The position numbers were made by a program, and so were the translations under genes. Source: Parcubacteria group bacterium (GTDB lineage Bacteria; Patescibacteriota; Patescibacteriia; UBA2169). From it: a DNA stretch of 64,000 bases. Shown here in pieces: positions 5,335-63,915 of this stretch (positions within the stretch are counted from its first letter, which is position 1; each line of letters opens with the position of its first letter). The notes beneath the pieces are model-generated. The model was not told the origin of the DNA, did no database searches, and was given only the letters and a program-made list of their open reading frames with translations. Location: the NCBI GenBank assembly GCA_016181765.1, contig JACOYR010000006.1, forward strand, positions 31,664-95,663, read 5' to 3'.

Positions 5335-6981
5335 ATGCTAGACTCACCCTATGAAACACGCGCCCGCGCTCGCACTCGCCGCATTCCTGCTGGCGCTCTA
5401 GAGGACAGCGGAGAGTTTGTGGCGGCGAGCCACACGCTCTCCATCCCGCACCCGTCCGGGTATCCGACCTATCTTCTGACCGCAAAACTCGCCTCACTGG
5501 TTCCGTTTTTGCCTACGGTTGTTGAACGCGTCAATTTCGTGTCCGCCATCTGGACCATCGCGGCCGCGGTGCTCTTGTACTATGCCCTGGCAGGGCTGTT
5601 TGCGAGCCGCCTCATCGCCTCTTCGCTTGCGCTCCTCTTCGCCACAAGCCCAATGGTCTGGCAACAGGCAACCTATGCGGAAGTGTATTCATTGAACACG
5701 TTTTTTTTCGTCTTGTTGCTCTGGTCAGGGCTCTGCTACGTTAAACGTAAGACCAACAAACGGCTGTGCCTGTTTTTCTTTGTGTACGGATTAAGCCTCA
5801 CCAACCACTTTTTGCCGCTTGTTCTCTCGCCGCTCATTATCATCTGGCTCCTCAAGGAGCGTCCTTTGACCAAAAGCATAGTACTCTACCTCAAAGCATT
5901 CAGCGCATGGCTTCTCGGGCTTGTCCCTTATCTCTACATTCCCATCCGGAACCAGATGGACCCCGCATTCTCCTGGTTCGGCGGCAACGCGGAAAAAATC
6001 CTCACTTACAATATCGCCTACGGCTGGCGCCTGAACGAACACACGCTCTCGTACCTCGCTGACGTTGCGCACCAGATGAACATAAGTTTCGGGATGCTCG
6101 GCATTGCCGCATTTGTTGCCGGGATCGGAGTGATGGTGCGCTACCGGCATCCGGCGCGCTTCTGGCTCCTCGCGGTACTCGCCCTGCTCTCCATTGGATT
6201 GGTGATTGTTTTGACAAACGGCAGGCCCTACGCCGAGTTTGAGAGCCAGTTCTACCAGACGCTCTATGTCCCCTTTCTCCTTATGTCGCTCCTGCCTATT
6301 GGATGGCTCCTGCAACAATTAGCACAGAGCACGTATAGGCTCATCATCTTCTACACTACTCTGCTTGCGATTATGGCGTGGCCCGCAATTGACCTCGGCA
6401 ATCGGTTCCTAAAAAATGACCGTTCGGACTACGTGCTCATGGAAAATTACACGCGGGGACTGCTTGAATCACTCCCCGCAGACGGGACGCTGTACAGCCA
6501 CCATGACCACATTCTAAATGACACGCTGGTGTTTGGCCTGGCGTACCAGCAGTATGTGGCCGGAGTGCGGGATGATGTTGCCATTTATTCTCTGACGCCG
6601 GTATTCCCTCCGCCGGACGATTTTCCGCTTGGTGAAAATCGGAAACAAAACTATGAGCCAATACTCAAGCAGTACCTTGATGAGCGCTACGCCCCAGAAG
6701 ACGTCAGCGCCACGTTTCCGCAACCACGGGACGGCATCCCTGCCACGGCCCCGGAAAACTATGCCGCAGACAACTTGTACTTGCCGAGCGTGAATGACAG
6801 CCTCTACCACCGCTCCCTTGTGGCCAAGTACTACTATGACCTCGCCGCGTATACGTACTCCCGAAACAACCTCCCGAGCGGCCAGCGCTTCTTGGTGCAG
6901 GCCATTGAATATGATCCGGACCAGTTCAGCGATTACTACTACCAAACCTTAGCCATGCGCAGCTACTATTTTGACAATTGA
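5335..6981 (+). CDS. polytopic membrane protein, DUF2723/TMEM260-like (putative GT-C type glycosyltransferase)
   Basis: SHTLSIPHPSGYPTYLL motif near N-terminus followed by multiple hydrophobic segments; N-terminus may be incomplete. Confidence 0.55.
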   Translation: MLDSPYETRARARTRRIPAGALEDSGEFVAASHTLSIPHPSGYPTYLLTAKLASLVPFLPTVVERVNFVSAIWTIAAAVLLYYALAGLFASRLIASSLALLFATSPMVWQQATYAEVYSLNTFFFVLLLWSGLCYVKRKTNKRLCLFFFVYGLSLTNHFLPLVLSPLIIIWLLKERPLTKSIVLYLKAFSAWLLGLVPYLYIPIRNQMDPAFSWFGGNAEKILTYNIAYGWRLNEHTLSYLADVAHQMNISFGMLGIAAFVAGIGVMVRYRHPARFWLLAVLALLSIGLVIVLTNGRPYAEFESQFYQTLYVPFLLMSLLPIGWLLQQLAQSTYRLIIFYTTLLAIMAWPAIDLGNRFLKNDRSDYVLMENYTRGLLESLPADGTLYSHHDHILNDTLVFGLAYQQYVAGVRDDVAIYSLTPVFPPPDDFPLGENRKQNYEPILKQYLDERYAPEDVSATFPQPRDGIPATAPENYAADNLYLPSVNDSLYHRSLVAKYYYDLAAYTYSRNNLPSGQRFLVQAIEYDPDQFSDYYYQTLAMRSYYFDN

Positions 6982-7020
6982 CGGGATGGTAAGATGATAC
7001 TAAAATGGTTTTGTCTTTGC

Positions 7021-7147
7021 GGTTTCTCGCTTGGGCCCGAGCGTAGCGAGGGTTAAGCGAGAAACCGAGAGGAGTAGGCGGATGAAGGGTGGAGCGGGCG
7101 AGCGCAAGCTCGCACGCGCAACCCGCAATCCGACTACGACGAGACGA
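7021..7147 (+). ncRNA. candidate structured RNA element (copy A) immediately 5' of tRNA-Gly; unassigned family
   Basis: 10-bp hairpin ggtttctcgc/gcgagaaacc enclosing conserved loop ttgggc...gttaa; conserved gagaggagtaggcg and ccgactacgacga motifs; internal GCAA-tetraloop hairpin; family of 4 with covarying stems. Confidence 0.45.
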
Positions 7148-7221
7148 GCGGGTATCGTATAGTGGCAATACCACAGCTTTCCAAGCTGTTGCCGGGGGTT
7201 CGATTCCCCCTACCCGCTCCA
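7148..7221 (+). tRNA. tRNA-Gly (anticodon TCC)
   Basis: Acceptor gcgggta/tacccgc, anticodon stem acagc/gctgt, loop tttccaa, T-arm ggggg-ttcgatt-ccccc, CCA encoded. Confidence 0.9.
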
Positions 7222-15630: not shown

Positions 15631-16570
15631 AACGCGCGACCCGTGGGCGCAGGCCGTACAGGCGAGTATTCCGGGCGCGGCCAAAACAAAAACGGTCCTG
15701 CTTGTCGGAAGCGCGGCGCAAATTTTTGCTACGCTGTTTTTCTGGATTGCCGGTTACCGGATTCTCTGGCTGGGGAGCCACAACGCACCTGCCGGCATAA
15801 AGGGTATTAAACCCTGTGTTAGCTCCTCGGCTCGGAAATGGAAAAGATTACTTTTCCATTTCACTCGCCCTACGTCGCTAATAACAAAACAGCTCATGCG
15901 CATTACAAGCCACGCAGCGCATGCAATCCTCGCCCCGAACCAGGCAATTGAAGCCCAGTATCTGAAAGCCGGGATTTCTGACAAAAAACTCTCACTCATC
16001 TATCCCCCGTGCGAAACTGAAACGCTTGATGCGCACAAGGACGGTAACGCATTTACCATTGTTTGCGACGGCGAAACCGGCATAGAGTATGGTTTGGGCA
16101 TGATTATGCGCGCTGTCCGGGACGCCCAAGACATCCTCGGAAATATACGGCTCGTCATCGGCGGCACCATCACTGACCGCGGCCGCATTGAGTGGCTTGC
16201 CAAGGAACTTGGGCTCTCGGACTCGCTCAAGCTCGTGCCCGCGCGGGGGTATGATTGGATTGCGCAGGGTGACGTATTTTTGTTCATGCGGAATGGCAGT
16301 GGCCAGATTCCGCTTTCCTTGGCGCACGCCCTGGCATATGGCAAGCCCATCATCACTAATGACGCGCTCAATCACCGCGAATTTGTGGTTCACCGCAAAA
16401 ACGGCATCCTGCTTAAGGATGCTAATAGCGATATGCTCTCCCAGGCCCTCATCAACTTTGGCCGCAAGCCGGAATGGTTGGCTGAATTGGGGCGCGAATC
16501 CGCGCAATTCGCTGCGGAGCGGTTTAGTCCGGATGCCGTGCGGAAAAAAATTGAGGCGCTGATCCCGTAG
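15599..16570 (+). CDS. GT4-family glycosyltransferase, N-domain largely deleted; hairpin repeat R1 lies in-frame inside the ORF
   Basis: C-terminal half has GT4 patterns (AILAPNQAIEAQYLKAGISDKKLSLIYPP...; E-x7-E region ...GKPIITNDALNHREFVVHRKNGILL); only about 75 aa precede R1 instead of the ~170-aa N-domain; ATG at 15896 right after R1. Confidence 0.55.
   Translation: MSGMSMRTIGKTRDPWAQAVQASIPGAAKTKTVLLVGSAAQIFATLFFWIAGYRILWLGSHNAPAGIKGIKPCVSSSARKWKRLLFHFTRPTSLITKQLMRITSHAAHAILAPNQAIEAQYLKAGISDKKLSLIYPPCETETLDAHKDGNAFTIVCDGETGIEYGLGMIMRAVRDAQDILGNIRLVIGGTITDRGRIEWLAKELGLSDSLKLVPARGYDWIAQGDVFLFMRNGSGQIPLSLAHALAYGKPIITNDALNHREFVVHRKNGILLKDANSDMLSQALINFGRKPEWLAELGRESAQFAAERFSPDAVRKKIEALIP
15821..15890. 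repeat. hairpin repeat R1 (agctcctcggctcgg + 12-bp stem-loop + cactcgccctacgtcgctaataacaaaaca)
   Basis: Second copy at 25737-25804 with 3 compensatory base changes keeping a perfect 12-bp stem (gaaatggaaaag/cttttccatttc vs gatatgaaaaag/ctttttcatatc). Confidence 0.7.
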
Positions 16571-20004: not shown

Positions 20005-20122
20005 TCGTCACAGTCGGACTCTAGCTTCCGTGTCCGAGTGAAACTCGGCCACTTCAGCTGTCGTCCGCCTTTTCCTCACAGTTTTGCGCTTAACCGACCT
20101 GCGGTCGGCCCAAGCGCAAAAC
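20005..20122 (-). ncRNA. candidate structured RNA element (copy D) immediately 5' of tRNA-Ser on minus strand
   Basis: Reverse complement reads ttttgcgc-ttgggccgaccgcaggtcggttaa-gcgcaaaa-ctgtgaggaaaaggcggacga...gctagagtccgactgtgacga then tRNA; same architecture as copies A-C. Confidence 0.45.
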
Positions 20123-20200
20123 TGAAAAAGACTACTGCAAGAATACTTAAAAAACCAAAAAAAAGCAACCCAAAACATGGACAAAAGAGCCGGATTATCA

Positions 20201-24174: not shown

Positions 24175-24696
24175 ATGATTACGCGAACAACAAAACTGGC
24201 ATGGAAAATGATTTTGAGCGGGTTGTTTTCCGCAAGCTTCCTGGCGCTCGCGCTTGTTCCGGCTACAACGTCTGCCGCCGTAGGTGACGACTGCACGGAC
24301 ACCAAATCGTGCCCCACCGGGGGAGAAGTGTGCATCCGCAACGCTAATGACGGAACTCCCGGAGATGCAACTGATGCCTTTTCTTTCGTCTGCACCACCC
24401 CGCAGGCCACCCAGTATGGTTTAGGCGAGTTTACTGATGTCGGTCTCGGCCAGACCCAGGACCTCAAGGGCTCTATCGCGAACATCATCAACATCATCCT
24501 CGGATTCCTCGGGATTGTGGCGGTCATCATCATCCTGGCCGGCGGATTCAAGTGGATGACAGCCGGAGGCAACGAGGACAAGGTCGGCGAATCGCGGCAG
24601 ATGATCATCCAGGGCATCATCGGATTGGTGGTGGTGTTTGCGGCCTGGGCAATCGCGAGCTTCGTGGTTTCCAACCTCCAATCAGCAACCACCTAG
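24175..24696 (+). CDS. pilin-like protein P2 with Cys-rich N-terminal ectodomain
   Basis: Conserved core IINIILGFLGIVAVIIILAGGFKWMTAGGNEDKVGESRQMIIQGIIGLVVVFAAWAIASFVV. Confidence 0.65.
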   Translation: MITRTTKLAWKMILSGLFSASFLALALVPATTSAAVGDDCTDTKSCPTGGEVCIRNANDGTPGDATDAFSFVCTTPQATQYGLGEFTDVGLGQTQDLKGSIANIINIILGFLGIVAVIIILAGGFKWMTAGGNEDKVGESRQMIIQGIIGLVVVFAAWAIASFVVSNLQSATT

Positions 24697-24727
24697 CCGC
24701 CTCCCCCCTCTCTCCTGCCTATGCACA

Positions 24728-24763
24728 ACCCCCGCCAAATCAGCGGGGGTTGTTTGTTGCGTC
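24728..24763 (+). terminator. rho-independent terminator after P2
   Basis: caacccccgc-caaatca-gcgggggttg + tttgttg; followed by TGGTATACT box at 24777-24785 before P3. Confidence 0.5.
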
Positions 24764-24814
24764 CAAATCCTGTTTTTGGTATACTATACACACTGTTATT
24801 ATCCACAAAGGTCT

Positions 24815-25528
24815 ATGATGAAAACTATAAGCATTTTGGCGTCTGGGGCCGCATTTTCAATCCTGCTCCTCCTTGCGCCATCGGCAACAAATGCCGCTCC
24901 TGTTGATGAAGATGGGGTCTGTCAGCTTTTTCCGGTTACCGCAGACGAAGCATGCGGGCCGGGTTTGGTATGCGAACAAACGCCGACAAGCGCCGCGGGC
25001 CAAGGAGTGTGTTGTGCGCCGGGGTCAGACAACTGCCGTTTCGGGTTGGGAGAACAATCCACGTTCACAACCCTGGGTTTGGGCAAAAATGATGACCTTA
25101 AGGGGACTCTGGCGACCATTATCAATATAGCGCTCGGGTTCCTTGGCATTATTGCCGTGATTATCGTGATGTTCGGGGGGTTCAAGTGGATGACTGCGGC
25201 TGGAAACGAGGAGCAGGTGGGAGAGGCGCGGAAGCTGATCGTGGGGGGCGTGGTCGGACTGCTGGTGATATTCATGGCATGGGCAATCGCGAGCTTTGTG
25301 GTATTATTACGCCTCGCTATACAACCATATGCACCACACCATGACGCCACGCGCCGTTCAAGCCGCAAAATGCATGCTTGCCACGAGCATGCTGGTTCTG
25401 CTCGCTGTTGCAATCGCGGCACCTTCGTCAACTGGCGCGCAAGTTGCGGATCCCCGGGCTGCGGACCAGCAGTATGGCCTGGGAAGCGCCAGCAGCTTCA
25501 CAAATGTCGGCCTGGGCAAAGAGGATGA
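24815..25528 (+). CDS. pilin-like protein P3; conserved end is at about 25303 but no stop codon follows, so the ORF reads into the next gene in +1 frame
   Basis: Core ...IINIALGFLGIIAVIIVMFGGFKWMTAAGNEEQVGEARKLIVGGVVGLLVIFMAWAIASFVV then non-pilin-like tail; 3' 210 nt nearly identical to P4. Confidence 0.55.
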   Translation: MMKTISILASGAAFSILLLLAPSATNAAPVDEDGVCQLFPVTADEACGPGLVCEQTPTSAAGQGVCCAPGSDNCRFGLGEQSTFTTLGLGKNDDLKGTLATIINIALGFLGIIAVIIVMFGGFKWMTAAGNEEQVGEARKLIVGGVVGLLVIFMAWAIASFVVLLRLAIQPYAPHHDATRRSSRKMHACHEHAGSARCCNRGTFVNWRASCGSPGCGPAVWPGKRQQLHKCRPGQRG

Positions 25529-25757
25529 CCTTAAGGGGACTCTAGCGACCGTCATCAACATAGCGCTCGGGTTCCTTGGCATCATTGCCGTGATTATCGT
25601 GATGTTCGGAGGGTTCAAGTGGATGACTGCGGCAGGCAACGAGGAGCAGGTGGGAGAGGCGCGGAAGCTGATCGTGGGGGGCGTGGTCGGACTGCTGGTG
25701 ATATTCATGGCATGGGCAATCGCGAGCTTTGTGGTAAGCTCCTCGGCTCGGATATGA
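25341..25757 (+). CDS. pilin-like protein P4
   Basis: Signal peptide MTPRAVQAAKCMLATSMLVLLAVAIAAPSSTGA; same core as P3; stop codon TGA lies inside repeat R2. Confidence 0.65.
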   Translation: MTPRAVQAAKCMLATSMLVLLAVAIAAPSSTGAQVADPRAADQQYGLGSASSFTNVGLGKEDDLKGTLATVINIALGFLGIIAVIIVMFGGFKWMTAAGNEEQVGEARKLIVGGVVGLLVIFMAWAIASFVVSSSARI

Positions 25758-25804
25758 AAAAGAATACTTTTTCATATCACTCGCTCTACGTCGCTAATAA
25801 AACA
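25737..25804. repeat. hairpin repeat R2 (copy of R1) between P4 and P5
   Basis: agctcctcggctcgg-gatatgaaaaag-aata-ctttttcatatc-actcgctctacgtcgctaataaaaca; supplies P4 stop and ends 5 nt before P5 ATG. Confidence 0.7.
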
Positions 25805-25809
25805 ATGCT

Positions 25810-26208
25810 ATGCCGATAGTTAAATCGTTTTCCTTAAGAATCAACCTGATCGTCGCGGCGGGCATGCTCGCATTCGCGATTCTCGCGCCGGTTCCGGCGC
25901 TCGCCCAAACCGACCCGTTCGGCGTGGAAGATGCGGCCAGGATCAACGTGGGCGAAGAGCGGGACCTTAAATTTGCCATTGCGAACATCGTGAACGTAGT
26001 ACTCGGATTTTTGGGAATCCTTGCGGTCATCATCATCATGTATGCGGGATTCAAATGGATGACCGCGTCCGGAAACGAAGAGCAGGTGGGCGAAGCCCGA
26101 AAAATGCTCTTGCAGGCGGTCATCGGCTTAATCATCATCATGGGAGCCTGGGTCATTATAAACTTCGTCACCGGAGAATTCGGCAGAGCGGTCCAGCTTG
26201 AAAACTAA
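25810..26208 (+). CDS. pilin-like protein P5
   Basis: Core NIVNVVLGFLGILAVIIIMYAGFKWMTASGNEEQVGEARKMLLQAVIGLIIIMGAWVIINFV. Confidence 0.65.
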   Translation: MPIVKSFSLRINLIVAAGMLAFAILAPVPALAQTDPFGVEDAARINVGEERDLKFAIANIVNVVLGFLGILAVIIIMYAGFKWMTASGNEEQVGEARKMLLQAVIGLIIIMGAWVIINFVTGEFGRAVQLEN

Positions 26209-26236
26209 CCGGCCCCGGGCCGCTTACGCAACACGT

Positions 26237-26905
26237 ATGACCGCACGCCGCACTCTCATCGTAGCACTCCTCGTTTCCGGATTGGCGGGATTCGCGGCAA
26301 GCCCGCACCCGGCATTTGCCCAGCGCAGCGCCGCCGGGGAAAACGCGCTCAATTTTTTGGATGCGACCGCGGAAAAGGGCGGGCTCTCAAGCGGCATCAA
26401 AAACGCGGGATTCAGCAGTGAGGACGCGGTGCTCGGCATTGTGGGCAACATCATCAACGTCATCCTTGGATTCGTGGGAATCATCTTCTTTGTCCAGATG
26501 TTCTACGCGGGCTTCAGGTGGATGTCGTCCGGCGGCAACGAGGAGGTCGTAACCGAAGCCAGGCAGACCATCAAGAGCGCAGTCATCGGCATTGCGGTGG
26601 TGTTTGCCGCGTTCGTGGTTACGAACTTTACCTTGAATCAAATCGCAAGCATCACTGGGCCCACGCGGCCATCCGGGTTGCCCCCTGAAGATGAGAGCTA
26701 TGACCCAAGTTTAGATGCCCCGGGCGGAGACTTAAATTTCGGCGAACTACCTCCGCCGCTTGGGACATGCATCTATCCAAAAAGCGGCGAATGTGATGCC
26801 GGAAACACCGGGTGGACTGACCTGCAAAGTGATGTATCTGAAAATGCTTGCATGACTCTCGCTGCTTCGGCTTGTGGCGACCCTGATTTGCACGACTGGT
26901 ATTAA
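26237..26905 (+). CDS. pilin-like protein P6 with C-terminal Cys-rich tail (alternative start 26198)
   Basis: Signal peptide MTARRTLIVALLVSGLAGFAASPHPAFA; core GFVGIIFFVQMFYAGFRWMSSGGNEEVVTEARQTIKSAVIGIAVVFAAFVV; tail with 5 Cys. Confidence 0.6.
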   Translation: MTARRTLIVALLVSGLAGFAASPHPAFAQRSAAGENALNFLDATAEKGGLSSGIKNAGFSSEDAVLGIVGNIINVILGFVGIIFFVQMFYAGFRWMSSGGNEEVVTEARQTIKSAVIGIAVVFAAFVVTNFTLNQIASITGPTRPSGLPPEDESYDPSLDAPGGDLNFGELPPPLGTCIYPKSGECDAGNTGWTDLQSDVSENACMTLAASACGDPDLHDWY

Positions 26906-26911
26906 TATACT

Positions 26912-27340
26912 ATGAAATACGCCGCTCTAATATCACTATTCTTGGCAACCCTGTCTATAACTCTGTTTTCTTTTCAAGTCGTGGCTCATGCCCAAAATAC
27001 TGATACCAAACTCGCGAGCGCGGTTGGCGATGCCCGTGGAAAACTCAATGCCATTGGCTCAATCACAGGCTTGGGACGGGTTGACGTTTCAACTGACGCT
27101 GGTCTGTACGAAAAAATCGCGGCAGTCATCAATATCCTGCTCGGGTTTGCGGGCGTAATTGCGACCATCTATATAATTGTTGCGGGAATCCAGTGGATTA
27201 CGGCAAGCGGCAATGAGGAACAGGTTACCGAAGCGCGCGGAAACATAAGGAACGCGGTCATCGGCTTGGTGGTTATATTCCTCGCGTTTGTCATCACCAA
27301 TTTCGTCACCAAATCACTCATTGACGTAATCGGCGGCTGA
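26912..27340 (+). CDS. pilin-like protein P7
   Basis: Core INILLGFAGVIATIYIIVAGIQWITASGNEEQVTEARGNIRNAVIGLVVIFLAFVITNFV. Confidence 0.65.
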   Translation: MKYAALISLFLATLSITLFSFQVVAHAQNTDTKLASAVGDARGKLNAIGSITGLGRVDVSTDAGLYEKIAAVINILLGFAGVIATIYIIVAGIQWITASGNEEQVTEARGNIRNAVIGLVVIFLAFVITNFVTKSLIDVIGG

Positions 27341-27356
27341 CGCTAAAAACTTCCCT

Positions 27357-27989
27357 ATGAAAATCTTTCTCACAGCCATTGCCTTAACAGGCCTCCTCGC
27401 AGCCGCGGCTCCGGCGCACGCGGTATCCGGCGTCAACCAGCTCAAGAACAACCTCGGCATCATCGGAACCGAAACCGGGCTCGGCACCCAAGGGGACTCA
27501 AGTCTTCCGGAAAAAATCGCGGCAATTGTGAACATAGCGCTCGGGTTTGTAGCGCTCATCGGGGTGATCATGATCATCTACGCGGGCTTTAAGTGGATGA
27601 CAGCCGGCGGCAACGAGGAGCAAATAAAAGAAGCCAAAGGCCATATCCGCAATGCGGTCATCGGCATTGTCATTATTATGCTCGCGTTCGTAATTGTCAA
27701 TTTTACCGTGAACAAGCTCTCGGAAACCGTGGGTGTGGGCGAGGGCGGAGGAGGAGGGGGAAACGTCATCAGCGGACTTTGTGAATTTGATGTTGGCGGC
27801 GGGCTTATGTTCTGCGTACCTCGGTCAGAATCAGAGTGCCAAACCCTTGGGGGAACCTATAACGCGCAGTGCGAAAAGCAGACTTACTGCAGGTGCGCAA
27901 GCGGATGCGGGGCAAACAACTGCCTTATTATGACCGAAAATGCATGCGAAAGGAAGAGTGGAGCGCTTAGCGACGCGCCCTGTAATTGA
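27357..27989 (+). CDS. pilin-like protein P8 with Gly-rich linker and 10-Cys C-terminal module
   Basis: Core IVNIALGFVALIGVIMIIYAGFKWMTAGGNEEQIKEAKGHIRNAVIGIVIIMLAFVIVNF; GEGGGGGGN linker; CEFDVGGGLMFCVPRSESECQTLGGTYNAQCEKQTYCRCASGCGANNCLIMTENACE. Confidence 0.65.
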   Translation: MKIFLTAIALTGLLAAAAPAHAVSGVNQLKNNLGIIGTETGLGTQGDSSLPEKIAAIVNIALGFVALIGVIMIIYAGFKWMTAGGNEEQIKEAKGHIRNAVIGIVIIMLAFVIVNFTVNKLSETVGVGEGGGGGGNVISGLCEFDVGGGLMFCVPRSESECQTLGGTYNAQCEKQTYCRCASGCGANNCLIMTENACERKSGALSDAPCN

Positions 27990-50317: not shown

Positions 50318-50451
50318 AATAGTGCCCCTTTTAATGATTATAGGTTCCTATAGTATACTAAAATGGGCATGCATTGTAAAAATAACGCTATTACGGTATA
50401 ATTCGCCTATATTTTGCTCGGATGCGGAACCCCAAACCCCAACTCTGACGC

Positions 50452-50528: not shown

Positions 50529-50609
50529 TAATTTGTCAAAATTGTCAACTTTTTCATGATGGGTTGAACAAAATTTACATGGGTTGAACAAAAATTATGA
50601 ATCTGACGC

Positions 50610-50685: not shown

Positions 50686-50731
50686 GACAAATTGTTCAGT
50701 GTTAAACTTTAAAAATACCTCTTTCTTACAA

Positions 50732-50847
50732 ATTTTCTCTTGGGCTCACCGCAGGCGAGTTAAGAGAAAATTTGAGAGGAGTAGGCGTGCGGAGGGTGTA
50801 GTCAGTGCTGTAAGGCACAGAAGAAACCCGCAGCGCGACTACGACGA
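50732..50847 (+). ncRNA. candidate structured RNA element (copy B) immediately 5' of tRNA-Ala(CGC)
   Basis: attttctc-ttgggctcaccgcaggcgagttaa-gagaaaat-ttgagaggagtaggcg...gcgactacgacga then tRNA. Confidence 0.45.
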
Positions 50848-60551: not shown

Positions 60552-61173
60552 ATGGAAAAAACAATCTACCCGTACGTAGCGTGGACATTCCCGGCCACGA
60601 ATGCTTTTTTCCTCAAGTCTGCGCACGGGCTGGATAACATTCCCGCTTGAGTGGGTCTTGGCTGCTCTGGTGTATCGCAAGATCCGCAAGCCCGTGTGGT
60701 ATGTTGCGCGGGATGACTACTGGTGGGGCACATGGTGGACAAAACCTATTAAGAACGCGCTCGCAACGCTCTTGGTTGATTGGCGCAATCCGAGCGCCGT
60801 GCTCAAAGAGGCCGAACGGGTGCTTGAGCAGGGGGGCGTGGTCGGCATGTACCCGGAAGGGACGCGCAACACGGACGCGCGCGCTTTGGCATTGGGCAAG
60901 ACCGGCGTGGCGCGTTTGGCGCTCGCTTCCTCCGCGCCCGTGATACCGGTCGGGTACGCCGGGCCCTCCATTGCAACGGTCTGGGACGTTATCCGGGAGT
61001 TTGCGTTCAAGCGGAATGCCGCCACTCTGTCGTTCGGGCGCGCGGTTGACCTCTCCGCGTGCTACGGCAAGCAGGTCACGCGCGAACTTTTGTACCGCGC
61101 CACGGACGATATCATGGCCGCCATTGGAGCATTGTGCGGAAAGCGGCCCCGCTTGCACGAATACAGCGGGTAG
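60552..61173 (+). pseudogene. PlsC-like lysophospholipid acyltransferase, disrupted (HX4D motif region missing, frame changes at about 60640)
   Basis: ATG at 60552 gives ...LKSAHGLDNIPA then stop at about 60648; downstream frame carries ...KIRKPVWYVARDD... and motif III YPEGTR; no HxxxxD in either frame. Confidence 0.5.
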
Positions 61174-62515: not shown

Positions 62516-62770
62516 ATGCCGCAACGCATCACGGTAAAAGTTACGCCACGCTCAAAAGAGAACAAAATTATCGGGCTTAAAGACGGCATCTTGCGCGTGC
62601 GCATTACCGCGCCCCCGGTTGAGGGCAAGGCCAACAGGGCCCTGGTTGAGTTTTTGGCGGACGCGTGGGGAGTTTCCAGGCAAAGCATCCGCATTGTCCG
62701 GGGCGAAACATCGCGTGAGAAAGTTTTGGAAGTTCCGGACAGCATACCTTTACAAAAAGGCATGATTTGA
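62516..62770 (+). CDS. yggU: DUF167/YggU family protein
   Basis: ITVKVTPRSKENKIIGLKDGILRVRITAPPVEGKANRALVEFLAD. Confidence 0.7.
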   Translation: MPQRITVKVTPRSKENKIIGLKDGILRVRITAPPVEGKANRALVEFLADAWGVSRQSIRIVRGETSREKVLEVPDSIPLQKGMI

Positions 62771-62798
62771 TATACTTTTTTTGTCTTAAATATACAAA

Positions 62799-62914
62799 AT
62801 TTCCGTTGGGCTGAGCGAAGCGAAGTTAACGGAAATTTTGAGAGGAAGAGGCGGACGAAAGCCGAAGCAGGCTCGCGCAGTGAGCATGCGGAGGCTGTAG
62901 TCCGACTCTGACGA
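62799..62914 (+). ncRNA. candidate structured RNA element (copy C) 5' of a truncated tRNA-Gly-like sequence
   Basis: atttccg-ttgggctgagcgaagcgaagttaa-cggaaat-tttgagaggaagaggcggacgaaag...ggctgtagtccgactctgacga. Confidence 0.45.
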
Positions 62915-62985
62915 GCGGGTATCGTATAATGGCTATTATGCCACCTTGCCAAGGTGGAGATACGGGTTCAATTCCCGGCTACAGT
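62915..62985 (+). pseudogene. tRNA-Gly(GCC)-like sequence lacking the 3' acceptor strand and CCA (truncated or pseudo-tRNA)
   Basis: First 13 nt identical to tRNA-Gly(TCC) at 7148; anticodon arm ccacc-ttgccaa-ggtgg and T-arm acggg-ttcaatt-cccgg intact; after cccgg comes ctacagtgatgg instead of tacccgc-t-cca. Confidence 0.5.
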
Positions 62986-62995
62986 GATGGTGCGT

Positions 62996-63080
62996 GCCGG
63001 GATGGTGGAATGGTATACACGCGACACTTAAAATGTCGTGCGCTATGCGCATGTGGGTTCGAGTCCCGCTCCCGGCACCA
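62996..63080 (+). tRNA. tRNA-Leu (anticodon TAA), class II
   Basis: Acceptor gccggga/tcccggc, 3-bp D-stem, anticodon stem cgaca/tgtcg loop cttaaaa, variable arm tgcgc-tat-gcgca, T-arm gtggg-ttcgagt-cccgc, CCA encoded. Confidence 0.85.
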
Positions 63081-63087
63081 CATAAAA

Positions 63088-63122
63088 AAAGCAGCCTCGC
63101 ACGGAGCATCGTGCGAGGCTGT
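63088..63122. terminator. bidirectional rho-independent terminator
   Basis: aaaaaaagcagcctcgcac-ggagcatc-gtgcgaggctg. Confidence 0.5.
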
Positions 63123-63144: not shown

Positions 63145-63915
63145 CTACCATTCGGATGAGCTGAATTCCGTGTGGTGGCCAACACGGAAAAACATGATGA
63201 TGCCGTTGTCGCCCTGTTTCCAGAAGAACCGGTACTCCCTGTTTGAGCGGCTTTCAAAACTTCCTCCCGGAATGCCGGTTATGTCCAGGCCTTGCCGCCG
63301 CTTGGTCTTGAACGAGGAGTATTGCTCCCCATGTGCGGCAAACCGATGTAGCGCTTCAACCACTTCCAGGCGTTCGCGCTCCTGGAGGCCTTGCAGGTCG
63401 CGCAGAAATCGGTCTTCATACTGCATAGCCCTGCCGTCATGTACGGCCTTGGGAAGCCGCGCGCGCAGTTCTTCGCGCTCCTGCGCGCCAGTATCGGTGA
63501 GTTCCAGCTTTTGCGCCAACTCATAGATTCGGCGTCCATCCTCGCCTTGTGTGGCTGTTTGCTCCAGAAGCTCCCAGAGCTTTTTGCCCTCTACCGTGCG
63601 CAGCCTTTCCTTCAGGGTGCGCACTTTTTGTTGGAGGAGCGCTATTTGTTCCTGCGCTTTTTGGAGCGCCCCTGATGCTTGCGCAAGTGTTGCTTCAAGA
63701 GCTCTTTTTTCCCTTTCCACTATCTTTATCCGGCGCATCTGTGCCTCATGGTCGTTTGTTTGTCGGTTGGTTGTTGGATTCAATGTGCGGTACCCATTGG
63801 TATACCAGAATGAATTGGTTGCGTCAACCAATTTGCGCTTTTTGCGTTTTTTAGGTAGGGTTTGATGAGGATTTGCAAAACAACATTCACGCAGTTCATT
63901 GTTAACCGAGGCCAA
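63145..63915 (-). CDS. hypothetical protein: coiled-coil N-part and RelE/ParE-like C-terminal about 90 aa
   Basis: C-terminus ...SFKTKRRQGLDITGIPGGSFESRSNREYRFFWKQGDNGIIMFFRVGHHTEF resembles RelE/ParE core; internal Met (MQYED...) would give a stand-alone toxin-sized product. Confidence 0.35.
   Translation of the reverse strand: MASVNNELRECCFANPHQTLPKKRKKRKLVDATNSFWYTNGYRTLNPTTNRQTNDHEAQMRRIKIVEREKRALEATLAQASGALQKAQEQIALLQQKVRTLKERLRTVEGKKLWELLEQTATQGEDGRRIYELAQKLELTDTGAQEREELRARLPKAVHDGRAMQYEDRFLRDLQGLQERERLEVVEALHRFAAHGEQYSSFKTKRRQGLDITGIPGGSFESRSNREYRFFWKQGDNGIIMFFRVGHHTEFSSSEW

Follow-up and report, generated by a model that had tools for sequence, protein, structure and literature searches.

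Organization of the tRNA-Gly and tRNA-Leu locus

The DNA analyzed here, referred to as the window, is a 64-kb stretch of a 106,147-bp contig in an NCBI MAG record deposited as 'Parcubacteria group bacterium' (locus tags HYT31_*, proteins MBI2051061-128). Close to its end, the plus strand carries a promoter-like site, TTTACA-16-TATACT (positions 62749..62776; 10/12, with a TG before the -10 box), that would serve a leader/tRNA-Gly transcript. It is followed by a structured 5'-leader RNA that we call element copy C (62795..62914) and by positions 1-64 of a tRNA-Gly(GCC) (62915..62977), comprising the 5' acceptor strand, the D arm, the anticodon arm and the T arm minus its last base. A remnant of the spacer between the two tRNA genes (62978..62995) contains a -10-like TACAGT (62980-62985) and a short tRNA-Leu leader, and leads into an intact tRNA-Leu(UAA) (62996..63080; Rfam 58.5 bits). 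Between this gene and a convergent gene on the minus strand (63145-63915) lies a GC-rich hairpin of 12 bp (63092..63121), which is called as a terminator on the minus strand only; the A7 upstream of it is the U-tract for that strand. An equivalent GC-rich hairpin is present in one of the related genomes described below (L033).

ARAGORN called eight tRNAs in the window, including the tRNA-Leu(TAA) at 62996-63080, and all eight have an encoded CCA at the 3' end. No tRNA was called by ARAGORN at 62915.

Two other regions of the window show repeats. Tandem small membrane-protein genes with repeat families D1-D5 occupy 24430-27700, and a 420-aa gene near them is annotated as a TrbC/VirB2 family member (MBI2051081.1). 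A direct repeat of 72 nt with 88% identity, intergenic-looking and with a hairpin (GGAAATGGAAAAG...CTTTTCCATTTC), is found at 15818-15889 and 25734-25805, approximately 10 kb apart.

The deposited tRNA-Gly(GCC) lacks its 3' acceptor strand

A sequence-only reading of the window had described a match to a glycine tRNA from 62915, with anticodon GCC and without the 3' acceptor strand, running straight into a perfect tRNA-Leu(TAA) at 62996. Rfam alignment, ARAGORN and folding bear out the first part of this description, and ARAGORN and the Rfam score given above bear out the second. The likeness of its first nucleotides to the tRNA-Gly gene at 7148, likewise pointed out there, was recovered as well: the first 14 nt match this tRNA-Gly(TCC) and are part of a 27-nt repeat of 93% identity that includes 5 nt of the leader. 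The letters CTAC after the T-stem resemble the start of a 3' acceptor strand; they are in fact spacer from just upstream of tRNA-Leu, the retained tRNA ends at 62977, and the tRNA-Leu gene begins after another 18 nt.

With the Rfam tRNA model, 62915-62986 reaches 32.0 bits, which is just over the gathering score of 29 but far below the 61.3 bits of an intact tRNA-Gly(GCC) copy; the alignment marks four pairs of the acceptor stem and the first pair of the T-stem as non-standard. In the true register, pairing is possible only for A7-U, U6-A and G5-C, in place of an acceptor stem of seven base pairs. Where the discriminator and CCA should stand, the window has GCTACAGTGATGG. When 62915-62995 was folded alone, no cloverleaf was obtained and the MFE structure had no acceptor stem (z = -0.30), whereas the intact homologue folds as a cloverleaf (z = -2.6). 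As written, the gene is predicted to be non-functional, as it cannot work without an acceptor stem, the discriminator U73 or CCA. In tRNA-Gly, the pairs of C2 and G3 with G71 and C70 are identity pairs for GlyRS; G71 and C70 are also lost, so the partners of C2 and G3 are gone.

The same region could instead be read as a functional non-canonical tRNA, or as a tRNA-like processing handle fused to tRNA-Leu in an unusual precursor. In favor of this, it exceeds the Rfam threshold and its D arm, anticodon arm (GCC) and T arm are perfect. However, these arms are perfect because they are identical to those of an intact gene (on contig L001, see below), no acceptor stem forms, and ARAGORN rejects it. 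We also considered upstream leader strands as an alternative acceptor. CUGUAG at 62894-62899 can pair with CUACAG at 62979-62984, but this 6-bp pairing is a coincidence and was rejected because CUGUAG belongs to helix P3 and a linker of the leader element.

An intact allele is present in the same population

A look-up of the protein encoded upstream, a DUF167 (YggU) protein, returned five short contigs from independent Logan assemblies of runs SRR12113420-431. Two of these cross the tRNA region, L001 (SRR12113424) and L005 (SRR12113429), and both carry an intact tRNA-Gly(GCC) (ARAGORN; Rfam 61.3 bits, cloverleaf). In BLAST comparisons of the window with either contig, the identity was 100% on both sides of one single gap of 69 nt, at 62977|62978. 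Relative to L001, the 69 nt at 2693-2761 are absent at the junction 62977..62978. The preceding 62915..62977 is identical to L001 2630-2692, to L005 and to two further contigs (L006 and L011), in all of which ARAGORN finds a complete tRNA-Gly(GCC) of 75 nt; the following 62978..62995 is identical to L001 2762-2779 and near-identical to L006 165-182. Element copy C is 100% identical in L001.

The missing segment has three parts. The first, TTACTCGCTCCA, consists of the last T-stem base, the acceptor 3' strand, the discriminator U and CCA (tRNA positions 65-76). The second, AAAAATATTTCACCGCGGCGTGGGATATTTTTTT, is a hairpin of 13-15 bp followed by T7 (-10.6 kcal/mol), which by folding is kept in L006 with a different loop. 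The third, AGGTTGATTGCTGGTTGCTTTTGC, holds a TTGATT -35-like box located 17 nt before TACAGT. The half tRNA is thus, judged by these alignments, a normal tRNA-Gly(GCC) gene from which a single MAG record lacks 69 bases.

In its complete form the locus would be ordered as promoter, structured leader of approximately 120 nt, tRNA-Gly(GCC), hairpin/T7, weak promoter, tRNA-Leu(UAA) and GC-rich hairpin. The promoter at 62749-62776 would drive a transcript of leader and tRNA-Gly(GCC), which probably ends at the hairpin/T7, a terminator read by eye and from folding that lies below the tool's terminator threshold. The TTGATT-17-TACAGT promoter (8/12, also read by eye and below the threshold of the scanning tool) would serve tRNA-Leu. 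With the deletion, tRNA positions 65-76 are lost together with the terminator-like hairpin and the -35 box, so the first 63 nt of tRNA-Gly abut the final 18 nt of the spacer, which lead directly into tRNA-Leu; in this deposited form the Gly gene would be dead and tRNA-Leu would need read-through from the Gly promoter. The sequence-only reading had offered a decayed tRNA gene as one explanation. The loss of the 3' end stands, but decay is feasible solely as a very recent deletion, given that the flanks contain zero substitutions.

The ends of three independent Logan contigs, L002, L003 and L004, fall within 5 nt of one another (window 62773-62777), where the promoter-like site has its 3' edge and approximately 20 nt ahead of element copy C. 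The stretch is AT-rich, and assembly seems to break there recurrently.

The locus in related Parcubacteria

Orthologous loci were collected in two ways. Scans with a tRNA-Gly pattern, over GTDB species representatives and metagenome contigs, yielded L006 and L011. L006 (Parcubacteria, JACOVK010000055), a contig that begins inside the leader, contains an identical tRNA-Gly(GCC). Behind it come the hairpin, which differs in its loop, the same spacer and a tRNA-Leu(TAA) that has diverged. L011, a JGI metagenome contig with 77% DNA identity in the tig/DUF167 region, also has an identical, intact tRNA-Gly(GCC), placed downstream of these two genes. Trigger-factor homologues with 69-74% identity led to L030, L031 (GCA_964606465) and L033-35 (bacterium CG10_46_32), where an intact tRNA-Gly(GCC) lies downstream of tig and, L031 apart, also of the DUF167 gene. 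The L030 contig stops at the intact tRNA-Gly; wherever the relatives' contigs continue, a tRNA-Leu(TAA) follows 50-700 nt after it. The promoter-like site TTTACA-16-TATACT is kept in L011, L031 and L033, with or without the leader element.

The canonical 75-nt gene is therefore found in L001, L005, L006, L011, L030, L031 and L033-35, and the truncated form is conserved in none of them. By this comparison the canonical gene is the conserved state, and the window is the sole sequence with the truncated form among those compared. The possibility that related genomes share the odd sequence as a conserved gene, which had been named as a test of the sequence-only reading, is answered by the canonical tRNA-Gly(GCC) at the locus in five related Parcubacteria. 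A canonical gene is present in every related genome and in each of the independent assemblies of this population, which makes a functional non-canonical tRNA or a fused precursor hardly credible.

The distance between the two tRNA genes is only 50-75 nt in the species of the window, L006 and L031. In L033 (11908-12300, minus strand), and likewise in L011, a small membrane-protein gene with a weak DUF308 match lies between tRNA-Gly and tRNA-Leu. The spacer is thus evolutionarily fluid, with both tRNAs retained.

These comparisons also bear on the proposal that the site is a scar of integration or recombination, formed when a mobile element entered or left the 3' end of tRNA-Gly. The 3' ends of tRNA genes are classic integration targets, and the next gene (63145-63915) is without an assigned function. 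However, the intact allele is the longer of the two, by 69 nt, and nothing has been inserted in the window. A search of the window for a second copy of the tRNA 3' end (TTCCCGTTACTCGCTCCA, up to 3 mismatches) had a single match, at 7204, where the unrelated tRNA-Gly(TCC) has its own 3' end. Looking for a direct repeat of the tRNA-Gly 3' end farther downstream had also been suggested; the window ends 920 nt on, and in the approximately 635 nt by which L001 extends beyond it only the tRNA's own copy is present. The neighboring gene, previously called toxin-like, has no toxin or integrase domain and has a syntenic orthologue in L033 (51% identity, same position, convergent with tRNA-Leu). At the edge of the pur genes, which had been taken as a further hint of integration, purH comes next in the window and in relatives alike. 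The site does resemble tRNA pseudogenes and the partial tRNA copies at att sites of genomic islands, in that a recognizable part of a tRNA stands without the rest. Such remnants are normally 3' fragments, duplicated as direct repeats on either side of integrase-bearing foreign DNA, whereas here the 5' two-thirds are kept, with nothing inserted and no repeat or integrase. We consider an origin by integration or excision of a mobile element very improbable.

Two further deletions in the same record

The comparison with Logan contigs revealed a second deletion, of 44 nt, at 60648..60649 (plus strand), inside a gene for a PlsC-like acyltransferase. The loss takes out the NHxxxxD (HX4D) motif and puts the rest of the gene out of frame. 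L001-L004, from four independent runs, have the complete gene. The NCBI record has a truncated acyltransferase of 190 aa (MBI2051126.1), a product that is not on record in the contig index, and the 221-aa form is present on nine Logan contigs. Coverage of the Pfam profile is 30-131 for the truncated and 5-131 for the intact protein.

A third deletion, of approximately 31 nt, was found by an exact-sequence survey of 25 window proteins. It is located at 5399..5400 (+/-2 nt; plus strand), near the 5' end of a DUF2723 gene (5351-6981). In the window DNA the true start, ATG at 5351, meets a TAG after 16 codons. The NCBI protein of 548 aa (MBI2051065.1) begins at an out-of-frame upstream start; the Logan version of 553 aa has a normal hydrophobic N-terminus, and the two differ in their N-termini but are identical from LEDSGEF on. 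As the deleted forms of both protein genes are present in NCBI as MBI2051126.1 and MBI2051065.1, they belong to the deposit and did not arise when the window was extracted.

In other respects the record and the Logan assemblies agree: no fewer than 16 further window proteins are identical in both, as is another 7.4 kb of DNA that includes element copies B and D, and there are no substitutions over the more than 11 kb compared. Look-ups of five window proteins found nothing on record in the contig index, which probably results from the shortness of the Logan contigs, from start codons called differently or, for two of the proteins, from the deletions.

The three deletions (31, 44 and 69 nt) have a junction homology of 0-2 nt, and each disables a conserved gene. 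We looked for a shared mechanism and rejected it, as a local alignment of the two sequenced deletion regions was not significant (101/500 shuffles). The pentamer ATTCC is present 0-12 nt before all three left junctions; given the non-significant alignment, we treat it as a coincidence recognized post hoc, although it could hint at a sequence-specific process.

Assembly error or genuine allele

The deletion in tRNA-Gly and its exact content, the intact state of the locus in the population and in relatives, and the two further deletions are direct observations; what has to be weighed is their cause. The presence of two more gene-breaking deletions in the same record makes local assembly error the better reading. 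We infer, with a probability of approximately 0.7, that the deletions represent at least three local assembly errors in this contig, artifacts of assembly or curation rather than a living variant. The record disagrees with independent assemblies of the same population, in which the tRNA allele is intact in two runs and the acyltransferase in four, and the disagreement recurs at other sites of the contig where conserved genes are broken (the 44-nt and 31-nt deletions). Look-ups of DUF167 and tig in the protein-indexed assemblies returned no contig with the deletion allele of either the tRNA or the acyltransferase gene.

Errors of this kind are documented in short-read CPR genomes, with 13 in one genome of 1.13 Mb, and it is suspected that they are prominent where IDBA-UD was the assembler (Chen et al., 2020, Genome Res 30:315, PMC7111523). 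As in that study, a short stretch of the consensus is at odds with independent assemblies of the same population, several sites are affected per contig, and faulty or incomplete gene sequences have entered public databases. At 3 per 64 kb, the rate here differs from that of the CPR genome by a factor of no more than about four. One distinction is that the published errors were defined by the lack of perfect read support at the junction and ours were recognized by comparing assemblies.

One feature speaks against assembly error. The three junctions show no visible shared k-mer, and it is at shared k-mers that de Bruijn assemblers usually mis-join.

The main alternative is a real and very recent deletion of 69 bp, with the genome assembly having captured a sub-population that lacks tRNA-Gly(GCC). 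In such cells transcription from the Gly promoter would run through the leader and a dead stub into tRNA-Leu, and GGC and GGU codons would be decoded by a second copy of tRNA-Gly(GCC) elsewhere or by tRNA-Gly(UCC). Consistent with this, the sequence was deposited publicly, and PGAP predicted proteins across the other two junctions; both tRNA-Leu and the promoter upstream are intact, so that the fused unit could still express tRNA-Leu; and with 64 kb of the genome in view, a second Gly(GCC) copy is possible outside it. Were the source run absent from Logan, a genuine variant could be dominant there. Set against these points are three loss-of-function deletions within 64 kb in a sequence that shows no substitution over more than 11 kb, the lack of the deletion alleles in any independent contig found, microhomology of 0-2 nt that is atypical of slippage deletions, and a locus that is intact in all five related lineages sampled. 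Codon usage argues in the same direction: in ten window genes GGC and GGT together make up 61% of the glycine codons, and GGC by itself 58%, so that tRNA-Gly(GCC) is needed and its loss would be costly. On balance we regard a genuine deletion allele as unlikely, and assembly error as the preferred explanation of all three sites.

A structured RNA element precedes several tRNA genes

Element copy C, which scores 132.4 bits with our covariance model R1 and ends at tRNA +1, belongs to a family with further copies in the window upstream of tRNA-Gly(UCC) (7020-7147, plus strand), tRNA-Ala(CGC) (50729-50847, plus strand) and tRNA-Ser(CGA) (20005-20124, minus strand), as identified by R1 and repeat comparison. 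Two copies in L033 (11656-11780 and 12435-12552) are also located directly 5' of a tRNA gene. The model was built on five copies and found an untrained one in L033, directly upstream of tRNA-Leu(UAA), at 110.6 bits. Each of the six distinct copies is directly followed by a tRNA gene (Gly-UCC, Ala-CGC, Gly-GCC, Ser-CGA or Leu-UAA), and they end at tRNA +1, or 5 nt earlier where the GACGA tail is duplicated.

The long P1 helix of the element carries an apical hairpin and an internal loop, UUGGG/GUUAA, that does not vary. A conserved linker, GAGAGGA, comes next, then the nested helices P2-P3-P4, and finally a tail with the sequence GACGA. Over the six distinct copies, 98.4% of the cells are paired and 26 of the 41 pairs show double-sided compensatory changes. 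Slid controls gave 27-37% paired cells and 2-4 pairs with double changes, and none of 500 shuffles reached the observed values. A conserved secondary structure of the element is thus very well supported by covariation.

Promoter-like sites end 10-18 nt upstream of four of the copies. At the orthologous Gly locus of L011, L030 and L031 the element is absent though the promoter is retained, which implies that species have gained or lost it at this locus. A search of copies C and A against Rfam 15 identified no family, with chance-level matches far under the gathering score (E 1.6 or worse), and our literature search on tRNA-leader RNA in Parcubacteria/CPR found nothing relevant.

Several other interpretations of the element were rejected. 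A hammerhead-like reading (CUGACGA...GAAA) fails because CUGANGA is not kept in copies A, B and D and no Rfam ribozyme matches. A small ORF behind the SD-like GAGGAG has neither a conserved start codon nor a conserved frame, and the variation is compensatory in helices. A pattern scan of IMG/VR viral contigs gave 10 matches; none of them adjoins a tRNA, so they were judged to be chance matches.

The terminal part of the element also occurs by itself. An end of approximately 10 nt, ACUNNGACGM, stands before tRNAs without the element (Ala-GGC and Arg-CCU). A short tail, (A)CUNNGACG(A/C), ends at -1 before six of nine tRNA genes (counting the truncated one), with or without the element, at 50437-50451, 50599-50609, 7130-7147, 20005-20020 (minus strand), 50833-50847 and 62900-62914. 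From its distribution, the shared tail may be a processing determinant.

Because the leader begins a few bases past the promoter and ends exactly at tRNA +1, RNase P would free it as a discrete RNA. The most economical reading of this arrangement is a 5' leader released by RNase P that would either influence the maturation of its tRNA in cis or function as a small RNA. We lean slightly towards the more specific proposal that the element is an undescribed structured RNA of approximately 120 nt, forming the 5' leader of selected Parcubacteria tRNA precursors and released by RNase P as a discrete RNA; it could serve as a cis-acting regulator of tRNA processing or as a tRNA-linked small RNA. Non-tRNA RNAs that are carried on tRNA precursors and released by tRNA-processing enzymes include the E. 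coli 3'ETS-leuZ and MALAT1/mascRNA. By analogy, the leader element would be a structured non-tRNA RNA joined to a tRNA, and its end would for that reason be set by RNase P cleavage at +1. It differs from these examples in being a four-helix 5' leader of approximately 120 nt, located before different tRNAs (Gly, Ala, Ser and Leu) and without an Rfam family.

Implications

Databases have probably propagated three errors that are not biology: the odd tRNA, the shortened acyltransferase MBI2051126.1 and the N-terminal change in the DUF2723 protein MBI2051065.1. Inferences on integration or tRNA evolution should not rest on these three sites. If the deletion were real, it would be a natural knockout of the main glycine tRNA in a reduced genome in which 58% of the glycine codons are GGC. 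The leader element matters more than the broken tRNA: it is a well-supported structured RNA linked to tRNA genes in an uncultivated lineage, belonging to no described family, and could bear on tRNA processing or the control of expression in CPR bacteria.
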